In this document: one piece after another, positions 31,419 through 49,516 of the stretch
Layout: each line of letters begins with the position of its first letter
Numbering within the stretch: the stretch's first letter is position 1
Assembly (NCBI GenBank): GCA_012455605.1
Contig: GCA_012455605.1_3618.1
DNA: 64,000 nt
Direction: 5' to 3' (one strand)
Origin: a phage
The notes under the pieces: model-generated
Databases searched by the model: none
What the model was told of the DNA's origin: nothing
The model's input: the letters and a program-made list of their open reading frames with translations, nothing else
Made by a program: the position numbers and the translations under genes

Positions 31419-31640
31419 TTAGTAAAACTGAAGAATGTCTTTTAAAGCGAAGTCACGATATTCGCCCTTGTCTACATCGAAGGCACGCATCAACCACTGC
31501 TCTTCTTTATGATACTCTGTAGAACCAAACCATAAATTAGGCTCAGTAACGCAGCGATCTGCAACAACACCTTTCCAGTTACGGTATTTCATCCTGATCA
31601 GGACCGAGTCGCAAGGATTGAATACCTTTTTCATCCCCAT
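31419..31640 (-). CDS. hypothetical protein (73 aa)
   Basis: ORF; overlaps the downstream gene, start uncertain. Confidence 0.3.
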   Translation of the reverse strand: MGMKKVFNPCDSVLIRMKYRNWKGVVADRCVTEPNLWFGSTEYHKEEQWLMRAFDVDKGEYRDFALKDILQFY

Positions 31641-32184
31641 AGAAATCTCTCTCCTCAGTTTTCTTTATAAACTCCTGCATGTAGAACTCAATAGCCTCAT
31701 GCTTGGTGCACTCCGGATCAATGACAAGATTGAGATCTGATTCTGCTCGTGCAATAATCGTAGCTTTAGAGCATCGCCTCAAGAACTTTGTCATATCATC
31801 TCTGTAGTTTTTGTGGAGCGGGAAGTCGCTGTAGTCTTTCTCCAAATAGTCAGCAATCCGGCGCAACGCCTCTGATAAACTGCAATCTGTATACTCGTTA
31901 CAGTATTTCATCCAGTATTTAAGCACATACCCCTCAAAGGTATTAGTGCATTGAGACAAAACACCCCTGCAACGACCAGTCAGATGATCATGATCTAAAC
32001 AAGGCTTACGAAGTGGCTCGCACAAGATCGGATCAAGACCATCCTGCTCCTCTGACAATTCTTTTCGAAAGTTGGCTATGTCCTTAGAATCTTTTAACCA
32101 CCCGTTATGAACTGGGGCTTTGACAGCTTTCTTTCTTATTTTACGCTTTGCGATAATCCCTCCAGATGAGCCCTGCCTATCCAA
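31579..32184 (-). CDS. endonuclease VII-like junction resolvase
   Basis: CEPLRKPCLDHDHLTGRCRGVLSQC matches the T4 endonuclease VII zinc/DHDH motif. Confidence 0.6.
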   Translation of the reverse strand: MDRQGSSGGIIAKRKIRKKAVKAPVHNGWLKDSKDIANFRKELSEEQDGLDPILCEPLRKPCLDHDHLTGRCRGVLSQCTNTFEGYVLKYWMKYCNEYTDCSLSEALRRIADYLEKDYSDFPLHKNYRDDMTKFLRRCSKATIIARAESDLNLVIDPECTKHEAIEFYMQEFIKKTEERDFYGDEKGIQSLRLGPDQDEIP

Positions 32185-45733: not shown

Positions 45734-45805
45734 GCCCTGTTAGCTTAGTGGATAAAGCAGCGGCCTTCTAAGCCGTTGACACTGGTTCGAGTCCAGTACG
45801 GGGTG
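45734..45805 (+). tRNA. tRNA-Arg (anticodon TCT)
   Basis: hand-folded cloverleaf: acceptor GCCCTGT/ACGGGGT, anticodon arm GCGGC-cttCTaa-GCCGT, T-arm ACTGG-ttcgagt-CCAGT, encoded CCA. Confidence 0.75.
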
Positions 45806-45812
45806 CCAAATT

Positions 45813-45896
45813 GGGGAGTTATCCCGTAGAGGTAGCGGTGTAGACTGTAAATCTATTGTCATTGCGACTCGGGTGGTTCGACTCCACCACTCCCCA
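45813..45896 (+). tRNA. tRNA-Tyr (anticodon GTA)
   Basis: acceptor GGGGAGT/ACTCCCC, anticodon arm with CTGTAAATCT as in E. coli tRNA-Tyr, long variable arm, encoded CCA. Confidence 0.7.
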
Positions 45897-46013
45897 CCAA
45901 ATTTATATTTTTAGATGCATAAATAATACAGATAATGGCATTGATATTTATCGTCGTTTATACTAGTCACTAACTGCTCGAAAATCAGTGTCATTATCAG
46001 TATAATTTATAAA

Positions 46014-46101
46014 GGAGGGTAGGGAGCAATGGTGCTCAAGCGGTCTTGAAAACCGTCCCGTTGAGGATGACTCGATGATGGTTCGATTCCATTACTCTCC
46101 G
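46014..46101 (+). tRNA. tRNA-Ser (anticodon TGA)
   Basis: acceptor GGAGGGT/ACTCTCC, anticodon arm GCGGT-cttgaaa-ACCGT, long variable arm, discriminator G, encoded CCA. Confidence 0.7.
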
Positions 46102-46202
46102 CCACATTGTTGACCTTGTAATTAAGCGAAAGCCGGAAGCAGAACCGGATTATCAAATGTTACAGTCGTCATCGCCGACTAGCAACATGGTCAACATACT
46201 GA

Positions 46203-46299
46203 GCTAGGTAAGCCCTTTGGCAAGGGCGAGGATTTTTAATCCTGAAAATAGACGAGGTAGTCGTTGAATACATAGGTGGTTCGATTCCATCACCTAGCA
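46203..46299 (+). tRNA. aberrant tRNA-like gene (Leu-type body, non-canonical anticodon loop; possible pseudo-tRNA)
   Basis: acceptor GCTAGGT/ACCTAGC, D-arm GCCC-tttggcaa-GGGC, T-arm GGTGG-ttcgatt-CCATC, discriminator A; anticodon region AGGAT-tttta-ATCCT has a 5-nt loop (or UUU in the alternative fold); over-long variable region; no encoded CCA. Confidence 0.4.
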
Positions 46300-46306
46300 C
46301 CTTTTT

Positions 46307-46379
46307 GCTGATGTAGCACAATCGGTAGTGCAATTGATTTGTAATCAATAGGTTGTAGGTTCAAGTCCTGCCATCAGCA
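46307..46379 (+). tRNA. tRNA-Thr (anticodon TGT)
   Basis: acceptor GCTGATG/CATCAGC, anticodon arm ATTGA-tttgtaa-TCAAT, encoded CCA. Confidence 0.75.
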
Positions 46380-46383
46380 CCAA

Positions 46384-46455
46384 GGCCCTGTAGCTGGAAG
46401 GTTCAAGCAAGCGACTCATAATCGCCAGACGGTGGTTCAATTCCACCCAGGGCCA
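46384..46455 (+). tRNA. tRNA-Met or Ile2 (anticodon CAT)
   Basis: acceptor GGCCCTG/CAGGGCC, anticodon loop ctCATaa, T-arm GGTGG-ttcaatt-CCACC, encoded CCA. Confidence 0.7.
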
Positions 46456-46469
46456 CCAAATAATAAATA

Positions 46470-46543
46470 CTCCGCGTAGCTCAGCTTGGTAGAGCGCCTG
46501 ATTTGGGATCAGGAGGTCGAGTGTTCGAATCACTCCGTGGAGA
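46470..46543 (+). tRNA. tRNA-Pro (anticodon TGG)
   Basis: acceptor CTCCGCG/CGTGGAG, anticodon arm CCTGA-tttggga-TCAGG, encoded CCA. Confidence 0.75.
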
Positions 46544-46592
46544 CCACTTTCAGTTATACTTTAAACATATACAAACAAAAGGAACCTTTAAA

Positions 46593-46967: not shown

Positions 46968-47366
46968 ATGATTTCAGGTTTAACATGGCTGAGTAGATAT
47001 AGAGGGATCATAAAATGTTTAGTTTTTGCAGCTGCTATAGGTACAGCTTATCTTGGGGCCGTGTATTGGTTTAACTCTAAGCTTAATGAAGCCTACCAAG
47101 AAGGTGTGTTAGCAACAGAGTTGAAGTGGGAACGGATCCTTGATCAGCAACAAAAGCAGGCCGACAAAGTTAAAATGGGCCACGCAGAGGAGGTTAAAAA
47201 CCTTGAAAAATCCCTTTCTGACCTACAGGATAAATTAAATATGGCTGAGAAGGCAGGTAAAGAAAAGCAGATTATTTACCTCCAATCCACTGAGGGTAAG
47301 AAGTCAACACTCCCTGATCAGCTTATAGATATTTATAATGAGAGTATCAATCAGGAGGGTCGATGA
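46968..47366 (+). CDS. i-spanin-like (Rz-type) membrane protein
   Basis: N-terminal TM anchor then charged coiled-coil periplasmic domain; stop overlaps the next start (ATGA). Confidence 0.5.
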   Translation: MISGLTWLSRYRGIIKCLVFAAAIGTAYLGAVYWFNSKLNEAYQEGVLATELKWERILDQQQKQADKVKMGHAEEVKNLEKSLSDLQDKLNMAEKAGKEKQIIYLQSTEGKKSTLPDQLIDIYNESINQEGR

Positions 47367-47650
47367 GAGTTGCTACACTGTTTATTGTGTGCTTGTTATT
47401 ATGTGGGTGTGCAACCAGTGTTGAGAAAGAATACAAGATTGACCCTCCAGATGTAGGAAGGTTGATTGTTAAACCCCCAGAAGGTGCCATGAAACCACCT
47501 GCTAAAGCTATGCCTTTGAAGAAAGGTGCGCCAGATGCAGTAAATTCTGGCATTATGAGGGATAATAATCTGTCTTGTAGCAATGATAGAGCTAAATTGA
47601 TCATTTTGCAAGACTATATTAGAACACTTTTTCCAAAGGAGAGAGGTTAA
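47363..47650 (+). CDS. o-spanin-like (Rz1-type) outer membrane lipoprotein
   Basis: signal peptide with LLLCGCA lipobox-like motif; Pro-rich mature part. Confidence 0.5.
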   Translation: MRVATLFIVCLLLCGCATSVEKEYKIDPPDVGRLIVKPPEGAMKPPAKAMPLKKGAPDAVNSGIMRDNNLSCSNDRAKLIILQDYIRTLFPKERG

Positions 47651-48075
47651 TGTCTAAGATTTACGGACCGTGTTCTGAAAAGCAGAAGATGATCCTCGAA
47701 AACGATGCAGATATTTTGGTAATCGGCGGTGCCGCAGGGTCTGGCAAGTCGTTCCTCTTGCAGTTGATGCCACTTAAAATTATTGATGACCCCCACAGCT
47801 CTGTGGTTATGTTCCGAAGAACAACCCCACAGTTGGAAGGTGAGGGTGGACTATGGCCTAAAGCAGTAGCTATTTATAGTGATCTGCCTGAAAACATTAA
47901 GCCAAAGTTCAGAGAGAAGGATCATAAGTTCATTTTTCCACGGTTTGATCCGAACACTGGCAAGTGGGATAGAAGCAAAAAGGGAGCTGTTGTAAAATAC
48001 TGCCACATGGAGTATGTACAAGATAAGCTTAACCATCAGGGGCTTGAGTACACCATGGTTTGCTTCGATGAGGGT
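47650..48075 (+). CDS. terL: terminase large subunit, exon 1 (ATPase N-terminus: Walker A to Walker B)
   Basis: Walker A GGAAGSGKS; ends with YTMVCFDEG (Walker B-like) just before the stop; downstream ORF supplies the rest of the protein. Confidence 0.7.
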
Positions 48076-48394
48076 TAATTTGTAGCTCTCGTAAAACCTC
48101 CCTAATTGCGGGGAAATCTTTATTATTGACACCACCAGCCTGTTATGGTAACATAATAGAGGCTTCGAAGAGAGATCGAAGGTATGGTAACAGTGTGTTA
48201 ATTTAGATAATCCGCAGCGAAGCATCCGAGAGGATGAACGTTCAACGACTAGTCGAAAGACGTAGAATCAAGCGATTCGAAACGGGAGGGTAAGCGGTTG
48301 TTGTCGCTTATAAGATATAGTCTGGTCTGCATGGAGACATGCAGCTGCCTGAAAATGGCGGGGCAAGACTAGCGACCTTGCCCGAACATGAACG
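48076..48394 (+). mobile_element. group I self-splicing intron (IA2-like, no ORF) in the terminase large subunit gene
   Basis: core elements present in canonical order: P AATTGCGGGGAAA (48104-48116), Q AATCCGCAGC (48209-48218), R GTTCAACGACTAGTCGAAAG (48240-48259), S AAGATATAGTC (48312-48322); P1 pairing of exon GAGGGU (48070-48075) with intron GCUCUC (48085-48090) including U-G at the splice site; 3-prime boundary inferred from frame (alternatives to about 48430). Confidence 0.8.
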
Positions 48395-49516
48395 ACACAA
48401 TTCGAATGGGAGCAGATAGACTATCTGATGTCTCGTCTGCGATCTCAGTCAAAGTATCCATCAAGAATGGTTATCAGCTGTAACCCCGATTCAGAACACA
48501 TGCTTGCCAAACTGGTTAGATGGTGGTTGGACGATGAAGGGTATCCAGATCCGGAGAAATGCGGTAAGAAAAGATATTTTATCCGACGCGACGGTGAATT
48601 TATCTGGGGAGACTCTAAAGAAGAGTTGATAGAGAAATACACCACGGTTAACGGACTGGGTGTGGAGATCAAGCCAAGACCGTTGTCATTCTCGTTTATA
48701 GGCGCAACAATATTCGATAATCCTGTCTGCTTAAGAGACAACCCAGAATACCTTGCTTTCCTTGAAGGTCTGCCGGAACTGGAAAAAGCTCAGCTTCTTC
48801 ATGGTAACTGGTTTGCAAAGCCTGAGGGTGCAAACTATTTTCAAAGATCTTTCCTTCGTGATGCCGATAGAGTACCCATTGGATCAGTATCTTGCAGGGC
48901 ATGGGATAAGGCAGGAACCGAGAGAACTTCCGGTAATAAATTTCCTGACTTTACCGCCAGTATTAAGGTAAGTAAAGATAGCGACGGCTTTTATTACCTG
49001 TCCGGTGATTATTGTCCTGAGAACGTGGATGACGGGAGGTATTCCACAGGTCTGGAAGGCAAGTTCTGTAAAAAGGCTGGTGAACGAGATGTGATCATCA
49101 GGAAACAGGCGCAGTTTGATGGTGATGATTGCATAATCGTATTCTCTGTGGACCCTGGTCAGGCAGGTAAGAGTGAGTTCTTAACCTCATCCAGATCCTT
49201 GCTCGCCGAAGGGTTCAGGGTTGAAGAAGACCCAATGCCTTCCAACAAATCTAAACTGACAAGGTTCTCACCTTTTGCCAATCTTGCACAACAAGGAATG
49301 GTGAGGATTGTAAAATCCAGTTTCCATCCTGATACTCTGGAAGCATTTCTGACTGAACTTGAAAAATTCAACGGAGAAAGATCAACATTTAACAGAAAAG
49401 ACGACTGGGCAGACTGTGTAGCTTCTGCGATTAATTTCCTGGAGAAAGAGGAGGTAGCACTTCCTTGTGTGATTCCATCAATCTCATCACCTTCTATGTT
49501 CAAGCGTTTTATCTAA
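48395..49516 (+). CDS. terL: terminase large subunit, exon 2 (coupling motif and nuclease domain)
   Basis: frame open from 48392; contains RMVISCNPD (like T4 gp17 IIITTTPNG); exon start inferred. Confidence 0.65.
   Translation, partial: TQFEWEQIDYLMSRLRSQSKYPSRMVISCNPDSEHMLAKLVRWWLDDEGYPDPEKCGKKRYFIRRDGEFIWGDSKEELIEKYTTVNGLGVEIKPRPLSFSFIGATIFDNPVCLRDNPEYLAFLEGLPELEKAQLLHGNWFAKPEGANYFQRSFLRDADRVPIGSVSCRAWDKAGTERTSGNKFPDFTASIKVSKDSDGFYYLSGDYCPENVDDGRYSTGLEGKFCKKAGERDVIIRKQAQFDGDDCIIVFSVDPGQAGKSEFLTSSRSLLAEGFRVEEDPMPSNKSKLTRFSPFANLAQQGMVRIVKSSFHPDTLEAFLTELEKFNGERSTFNRKDDWADCVASAINFLEKEEVALPCVIPSISSPSMFKRFI

Follow-up and report, generated by a model that had tools for sequence, protein, structure and literature searches.

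Why does the gene for the large terminase subunit (TerL) of an rV5-like Escherichia coli myovirus, genus Vequintavirus, read as two open reading frames (ORFs) that part company at one of the most conserved positions of its ATPase? The question is raised by a 64,000-nucleotide (nt) stretch of phage DNA (contig GCA_012455605.1_3618.1), here called the window; all positions given below are window coordinates and refer to the + strand unless stated otherwise. As judged from its sequence, the interval 48076-48394 is an ORF-less group I intron that interrupts terL one codon past the Asp-Glu pair of Walker B. The initial annotation, made by reading the DNA without database searches, had proposed such an intron in terL, and the proposal is borne out by a match to the Rfam family RF00028, by colinearity with intron-less alleles and by the restored match to the ATPase domain. 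The 2.4 kb around the intron are found in 116 phage records (at least 80% of the length, 95-99% identity), the best being that of phage naam at 99.0%.

The two coding pieces are easily recognized. Exon 1 (47650-48075) comprises 142 codons, the last of which is GGU (Gly142), and its ATG is preceded by a good Shine-Dalgarno sequence (AAGGAGAGAGG). It carries the Walker A motif GGAAGSGKS (47725-47751, residues 26-34 of TerL) and the Walker B motif MVCFDE (48055-48072), and it covers positions 2-104 of the Terminase_6N profile. When read without splicing, the upstream ORF (47650-48078) encodes 142 amino acids (aa) that end in ...MVCFDEG and are followed by a TAA at 48076-48078. Coding picks up 319 nt downstream, in a different frame, with exon 2 (48395-49516; 373 codons plus stop), which starts with ACA CAA TTC (TQFEWEQIDYLMSRL...) and supplies the remainder of the ATPase domain (positions 117-211 of the Terminase_6N profile) together with the RNaseH-like nuclease domain. 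The initial annotation had thus been right about the Walker A motif, the stop directly after ...VCFDEG and the change of frame about 320 nt further on. It was also right that the gene is split, but not that the split separates an ATPase half from a nuclease half, as the gap lies inside the ATPase domain and exon 2 supplies the C-terminal half of that domain as well as the nuclease.

Joining the two exons yields a TerL of 515 aa with a single Terminase_6N match of 72.2 bits across residues 25-294, whereas the separate fragments score 25.6 and 28.1 bits. The spliced protein also matches Terminase_6C (27 bits), the matches to both profiles of the T4-type large subunit exceeding their cut-offs, and scores 693 bits against PHROG 979, 'terminase large subunit'. 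Furthermore, it is letter-for-letter the deposited TerL of phages Murica (YP_009593907.1, AKU44155.1) and HeinrichReichert (QXV79789.1). A phmmer comparison of the spliced protein with the PDB sequences gave no match at E <= 0.001, and Walker B is therefore placed by its hhhhDE motif and by its coordinates in the Pfam profile rather than by a solved structure.

The exon junction can be fixed to the nucleotide. Three phages of the same genus, A6-1, phiWec189 and EduardKellenberger, have no intron and match the spliced protein in a single 1545-nt piece with 99.4-99.8% identity. The A6-1 DNA reads GATGAGGGC ACG CAG TTC GAA TGG and the window reads GATGAGGGT / ACA CAA TTC GAA TGG, where the slash marks the intron; in short, GAGGGC ACG CAG TTC in the intron-less allele corresponds to GAGGGT/ACA CAA TTC in the window. 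The junction 48075/48395 is the only one that is colinear with the intron-less alleles and with the deposited TerL, and the boundary between intron and exon cannot slide because the flanking bases differ. This fixed junction, the U at -1 and the G as final intron base together define the intron as 48076-48394, or 319 nt, with the 5' splice site after U48075 and with G48394, the omega-G, directly preceding the downstream exon. The ligated RNA is predicted to read ...GAUGAGGGU-ACACAAUUC... (also written GAUGAGGGU/ACACAAUUCGAA) and to encode ...CFDEGTQFEWEQ...; the residues that meet there, D140 E141 G142 on one side and T143 Q144 F145 E146 W147 on the other, are invariant in the TerL proteins of Seunavirus and Certrevirus. 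The initial annotation had offered three candidate 3' splice sites, after 48394, 48409 and 48430. Alignment to intron-less TerL selects the first and disposes of the other two: splicing after G48409 or G48430, or similarly after G48412, would be in frame, yet it would remove 5-12 residues that are invariant in the intron-less homologs.

The intervening RNA has the features of a complete group I ribozyme. A covariance-model search, which the initial annotation had suggested as a check, found the group I core: RF00028 (Intron_gpI) matches 48066-48344 on the + strand across model positions 1-253 of 253, with 84 bits (gathering score, 50 bits) and an E value of 6.4e-20 for the whole 64-kb window, both strands included. 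No second Intron_gpI match occurs elsewhere in the window, even with permissive thresholds. The minimum free energy (MFE) fold, which is independent of the model, has -112.8 kcal/mol (z = -4.85; 0 of 100 shuffles fold as well) and recovers P1, P3, P4, P5 with a long extension, P6, P7.1, P7.2, P8, P9 and a P9.1-like 3' hairpin. The conserved elements P (AATTGCGGGGAAA, at 48104), Q (AATCCGCAGC, at 48209), R (GTTCAACGACTAGTCGAAAG, at 48240) and S (AAGATATAGTC, at 48312) follow in canonical order, precisely where they had first been placed.

The helices can be assigned individually. Helix P1 (48070-48090) is seen in both the Rfam alignment and the MFE fold, and pairs exon GAGGGU (48070-75) with the internal guide GCUCUC (48085-90), as had been proposed, in 6 base pairs (bp) that include two wobbles, G48073-U48087 and the splice-site pair U48075-G48085; the in-frame TAA (48076-78) falls within its loop. 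The same two sources place P3 (48097-102 with P3' 48284-289), P4 (48106-112, in element P at 48104-116, with P4' 48211-217, in element Q at 48209-218), P5 (48116-119 with P5' 48205-208) and the region of the R element, P7.1 and P7.2 (48240-48278). The peripheral extension of P5 (48120-48204) consists of a stem (48125-137 / 48185-202) and two hairpins (48140-159 and 48161-183), and P6 is the hairpin CAUCC GAGA GGAUG (48223-48236). P7 is a 5-bp pseudoknot in which R pairs with S (GACUA 48247-251 / UAGUC 48318-322); it is invariant in the 12 copies compared below and is the predicted guanosine-binding site. P7.1 (48252-261; GUC-GAAA-GAC, with a GAAA loop) and P7.2 (48265-278; GAAUC-AAGC-GAUUC) show up in the Rfam alignment as an insertion of 29 nt that separates P7 from P3'. 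They are followed by the short P8 hairpin of this ORF-less form (48290-48311) and by the S element and P9 (48312-48346), in which 48312-322 provides the 3' strand of P7 and 48324-346 the P9 hairpin. Past the end of the Rfam match lies the P9.1-like 3'-terminal hairpin, GGGCAAG...CUUGCCC (48361-48383). Extra P7.1 and P7.2 hairpins are a hallmark of subgroup IA, home of the T4 introns, and by these two hairpins the intron looks like a member of that subgroup. As the initial annotation had maintained, the intron holds no homing endonuclease gene (HEG): there is no + strand ORF of at least 40 aa in 48076-48394, and tblastn with both related HEGs detected no HEG remnants in it.

We compared 12 copies of the intron, namely that of the window, those of eight ORF-less relatives and three that bear a HEG. 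Only 1 of 143 core positions varies, compared with 23 of 155 in the periphery (Fisher p = 1.9e-6), and the sole core change, GAAA to GAGA, preserves the GNRA loop of P7.1. Eleven base pairs are variable; pairing is kept in 8, three of them through changes on both sides, and is broken in 3, each in one copy. All three doubly compensated pairs fall in the P5 extension, where most of the variation between copies resides. At the exon flanks, intron-plus alleles have T (U in the RNA) at -1 and A at +3 in 9 of 9 cases (the window and the eight relatives), and both of the intron-minus alleles have C at -1 and G at +3; the T at -1 in the intron-plus alleles fits the requirement for a U-G pair. This pattern of conservation is consistent with selection on the ribozyme core.

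How the gene would be expressed can be outlined from what membership of the group I family implies for the chemistry. The terL gene would be transcribed as one pre-mRNA, in which P1 would join the last six nucleotides of exon 1 to the internal guide while P3-P9 form the core. Guanosine would attack after U48075, the freed 3'-OH of exon 1 would next attack after omega-G48394, and ligation of ...GAU GAG GGU to ACA CAA UUC... would give an mRNA for the 515-aa TerL with its ATPase domain intact. Unspliced RNA would give only the 142-aa fragment because the TAA is reached three bases into the intron. We consider it very likely that the element is an ORF-less, subgroup-IA-type group I intron in Vequintavirus terL and that it is removed by ordinary group I splicing. 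However, several points weigh against this interpretation. P10 is short and ambiguous, with either 3 bp (48395-97 / 48081-83, exon positions +1 to +3) or 4 bp (48397-400 / 48080-83, +3 to +6). The covariation evidence is thin and confined to peripheral helices, the copies being 96.6-99.7% identical. RNA or cDNA evidence for the Vequintavirus intron was not found in the searchable literature, and the rV5 and LL12 papers predict the intron from BLASTX or homology. Finally, certain group I introns of phages are spliced in vivo only (PMC11878797), and self-splicing in the test tube should not be taken for granted.

One possibility to be considered is that the intron is spliced in infected cells without being self-sufficient, a host or phage factor being needed, such as a chaperone or ribosome-assisted folding; a protein-free assay in vitro would then fail. 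There is precedent in the Bastillevirinae phages of Bacillus, several of whose group I introns, terminase ones included, were spliced in vivo and not in vitro (PMC11878797). In the window intron the weakness of P10 points in the same direction, as does the stop codon three bases into the intron, at which ribosomes would terminate on P1. For the T4 td intron, which has a similar layout with a stop near P1, translation is reported to play a part in folding. However, the core elements of the window intron are all canonical, its predicted fold is stable and nothing in the sequence suggests a missing element, and we regard such dependence as unlikely.

A second possibility, which we think highly improbable, is that there is no splicing at all and that two separately translated polypeptides, one of 142 aa with Walker A and B and one of 362 aa initiated at ATG 48428, come together post-translationally to form TerL. 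Although gene callers yield exactly these 142-aa and 362-aa ORFs, and hundreds of contigs list them as distinct 'terminase' proteins, the 362-aa ORF lacks the 11 residues TQFEWEQIDYL, among which T143, Q144, F145, E146, W147, Q149 and Y152 are invariant across three genera. The start itself is poor: ATG 48428 has only a GGGAG 15 nt upstream, which is ordinary coding sequence present also in the intron-less alleles, and no well-spaced Shine-Dalgarno sequence. Split phage genes that are not spliced do exist, for example the mobE-split NrdA gene of Aeromonas phage Aeh1 (as cited in PMC7344957), but the gap in terL is no spacer; it is a full-scoring group I ribozyme whose core is far more conserved than its periphery, and the U at -1 and the omega-G stand exactly at the positions needed for in-frame ligation. 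That the interval is an intron remnant in decay, or an artefact of assembly, within a terminase pseudogene that no longer functions deserves almost no credence and is already effectively refuted by the isolates: an intron without a HEG is indeed the stage before intron loss in the homing-cycle model, but TerL is essential, the 319-nt form is present in the records of 23 plaque-forming phages isolated independently, type phage rV5 among them, the core is essentially invariant and the intact exons share 98-100% identity with intron-less alleles.

The ORF-less intron of the window is not new; it is already known, annotated and published for rV5 and its relatives. The author of the initial annotation did not recall the arrangement as described for this phage type, and in this was mistaken, as it is annotated in rV5, LL12 and JohannBauhin and is treated by Kropinski et al. 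(2013; Virol J 10:76) in a section entitled 'Introns in terminase', in which paper D. Shub is thanked for locating the intron. The rV5 record (DQ832317 / NC_011041) gives TerL as a three-piece join, 'ORF64ABC'. Intron 1 of the rV5 terminase occupies the same insertion site and is the same element, without an ORF, 319 nt long and 98.4% identical to the window copy, but rV5 has an additional 979-nt HNH intron at codons 248/249 and the window is without a second intron. The identical arrangement is seen in LL12 (MH491969) and JohannBauhin (MZ501083, from the BASEL collection), in which, as in the window, TerL is a two-piece join over a span of 1867 nt with the ORF-less intron only; they differ from the window at only 2-2.5% of nucleotides. 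The LL12 record reads 'intron-containing gene; intron splice site predicted based on homology to AKU44155', and the LL12 announcement describes the TerL and DNA polymerase genes as 'disrupted by predicted intron sequences'.

More distant systems support comparison of different kinds. In Pectobacterium phage CB7, of the sister genus Certrevirus, the group I intron of TerL was found to splice by reverse transcription PCR (Buttimer et al., 2020; PMC7344957). As in the window, a group I intron there interrupts Walker B of the orthologous TerL within the same subfamily, but it lies 6 nt upstream of the window site (GVD/EGTQF compared with FDEG/TQF), is 969 nt long and carries an HNH gene; its similarity to the window intron is about 80% over 35 nt, and it scores 35 bits in Rfam, which is below the gathering score. 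The td, nrdB and sunY introns of T4 (subgroup IA2), also an E. coli myovirus, share with the window intron the P/Q/R/S elements, P7.1/P7.2 and an early in-frame stop, and from the S element to P9.1 (77 nt) the window sequence shows about 82% identity to the td intron region of T-even phages. However, the T4 introns reside in genes of nucleotide metabolism, whereas the window intron resides in a packaging ATPase gene and its copy is without an ORF. Lactobacillus phage LL-H provided the earliest report of a group I intron in a gene for a large terminase subunit (Mikkonen and Alatossava, 1995); that intron differs in belonging to a siphovirus of a Gram-positive host and in having a homing endonuclease ORF. 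Bacillus phage terminases also carry group I introns (PMC11878797). Outside Vequintavirus, the closest relative of the intron is in Pseudomonas phage 2PS (locus L018, 1501-1705; 72.6% identity over 190 nt). Copies of the 2PS type lie unannotated between two 'hypothetical protein' coding sequences in Pseudomonas phages of about 278 kb (2PS, SL2 and PaZh_1), where they are probably an unrecognised intron splitting one gene.

Within the genus, the site in TerL is a three-state polymorphism: it is intron-less, or holds the ORF-less intron, or holds an intron with an Endonuclease-VII-type gene in P8. Fifty-three phage records have an intron at this site, 23 of them ORF-less (314-320 nt) and 30 HEG-bearing (883 nt); about 121 records encode TerL at 95% identity or more, which leaves roughly 68 that are intron-less. 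This is the pattern that homing-driven gain and loss would give. The 883-nt form, found in HeinrichReichert, Murica-type phages, HdK5, JES2013 and others, has an ORF of 196 aa of the Endonuclease_7 family (75 bits) in P8. It shares with the window intron the insertion site, the core and the spliced protein, but its P8 helix, GAAUGUGUAA / UUACACACUC, is unrelated in sequence to the window P8 (HeinrichReichert, locus L004, 1324-1920, compared with window 48290-48322). The window P8 is only a short hairpin and its sequence is unrelated, so simple deletion from the HEG-bearing form does not account for the ORF-less one. The HEG-bearing P8 has one mismatch, which is repaired in HdK5 and phiWec196. 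The HEG starts at an AUG inside the 5' strand of P8 and ends at the UAG of the catalytic S element, and translation and ribozyme folding should therefore compete.

The exon sequence around the insertion site also distinguishes the alleles. Silent changes cluster at -1, +3 and +6 (window 48075, 48397 and 48400), with GGT/ACA CAA in intron-plus alleles and either GGC ACG CAG (A6-1, locus L007) or GGC ACG CAA (EduardKellenberger, locus L008) in intron-minus ones. These clustered differences could fit co-conversion, or target-site divergence and endonuclease-resistant variants at the homing site. We offer, as a doubtful proposition, that the ORF-less intron did not decay from the HEG-bearing one but is a separate, stable lineage with its own P8 that might spread by 'collaborative' homing, an Endonuclease-VII-type enzyme being supplied in trans by co-infecting relatives, and that intron-minus alleles, which carry silent C(-1) and G(+3) and in some cases G(+6), might be variants that this pressure has selected for resistance to cleavage. 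If true, such homing in trans and such immunity of the target site would still amount to an incremental advance. More speculatively still, the position in Walker B would tie TerL production, and hence the start of packaging, to guanosine-nucleotide levels by way of splicing. Elsewhere in the window, on the - strand, a free-standing gene of 201 aa (31579-32184) has an Endonuclease_7 domain (31.5 bits) and is weakly similar to the intron-borne HEG (48% over 25 aa); its product is probably the phage's own junction-resolving enzyme and not a homing endonuclease.

A second intron site exists in TerL and is unoccupied in the window, where it falls at about 48710 (48706-48714), between codons 248 and 249 (...GATI/FDNP...). 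In rV5, HdK5 and phiWec196 this site is filled by a 979-nt intron with an endonuclease of the HNH_3 + HTH type, and in RudolfGeigy by an ORF-less group I intron of 268 nt (Rfam, 95.6 bits). The second-site introns of relatives lie at 1735-2012 of locus L006, 1812-2790 of L002 and 2280-2583 of L012; the last is that of Pseudomonas phage KIL3, whose TerL is about 40% identical and whose group I intron (94.7 bits) lies precisely at the corresponding codon (ANV/YDNP), so the second site is targeted in distant terminases. A further Intron_gpI match in KIL3 (68.9 bits; L012, 3168-3390) extends from about 40 nt before the end of the annotated terL coding sequence into the intergenic region, and the annotated 3' end of KIL3 terL may be wrong. 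At its gathering threshold, Rfam misses the HEG-bearing intron 1 and the HNH-bearing intron 2 (L002, L004, L005 and L011); a negative Rfam result there does not mean that the intron is absent, because large P8 insertions break the model.

Several observations concern the neighbourhood and the public records. Immediately upstream of terL, a 95-aa ORF (47363-47650) ends on a stop codon that overlaps the start of TerL (TAATG); it scores 81.8 bits against the PHROG 'Rz-like spanin' family and is an o-spanin in the BASEL records. Several other public records call it 'putative large terminase subunit', apparently a misannotation that has been passed on. An antisense ORF of 124 aa (47851-48225) that overlaps exon 1 has no PHROG match and was rejected as spurious. 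Seven tRNA genes form a cluster directly upstream of the lysis and terminase genes (45734-46546): Arg-tct, Tyr-gta, Ser-tga, Thr-tgt, Met-cat, Pro-tgg and an odd one of 99 nt (46203-46301), to which ARAGORN assigns a four-base anticodon (atcc) and Rfam 35.5 bits. About 18 'Campylobacter phage' records (MG0656xx, host Campylobacter jejuni) are 98-99% identical to E. coli rV5-like phages over the terL locus, intron included, and their host labels look doubtful.

The practical consequence of the terL intron lies in annotation. Many Vequintavirus records keep a split terminase, and the pieces left unjoined at the intron are common throughout the annotations of bacteria and metagenomes. More than 400 contigs carry the 142-aa product of exon 1 under the name 'terminase family protein [Escherichia coli]', and fragments of 249, 261 and 362 aa have likewise been deposited. 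Use of TerL as a phylogenetic marker, or for predicting the packaging strategy of rV5-like therapeutic phages, requires the join 47650..48075,48395..49516.

In summary, these results leave current understanding unchanged, and the mild interest that remains lies in the distinct P8 of the ORF-less form and in the allele-specific silent changes around the insertion site. The locus adds a further well-resolved case of selfish introns placed in essential phage genes at those catalytic codons that are most conserved, and its three-state polymorphism could be a natural system for the study of the homing cycle.

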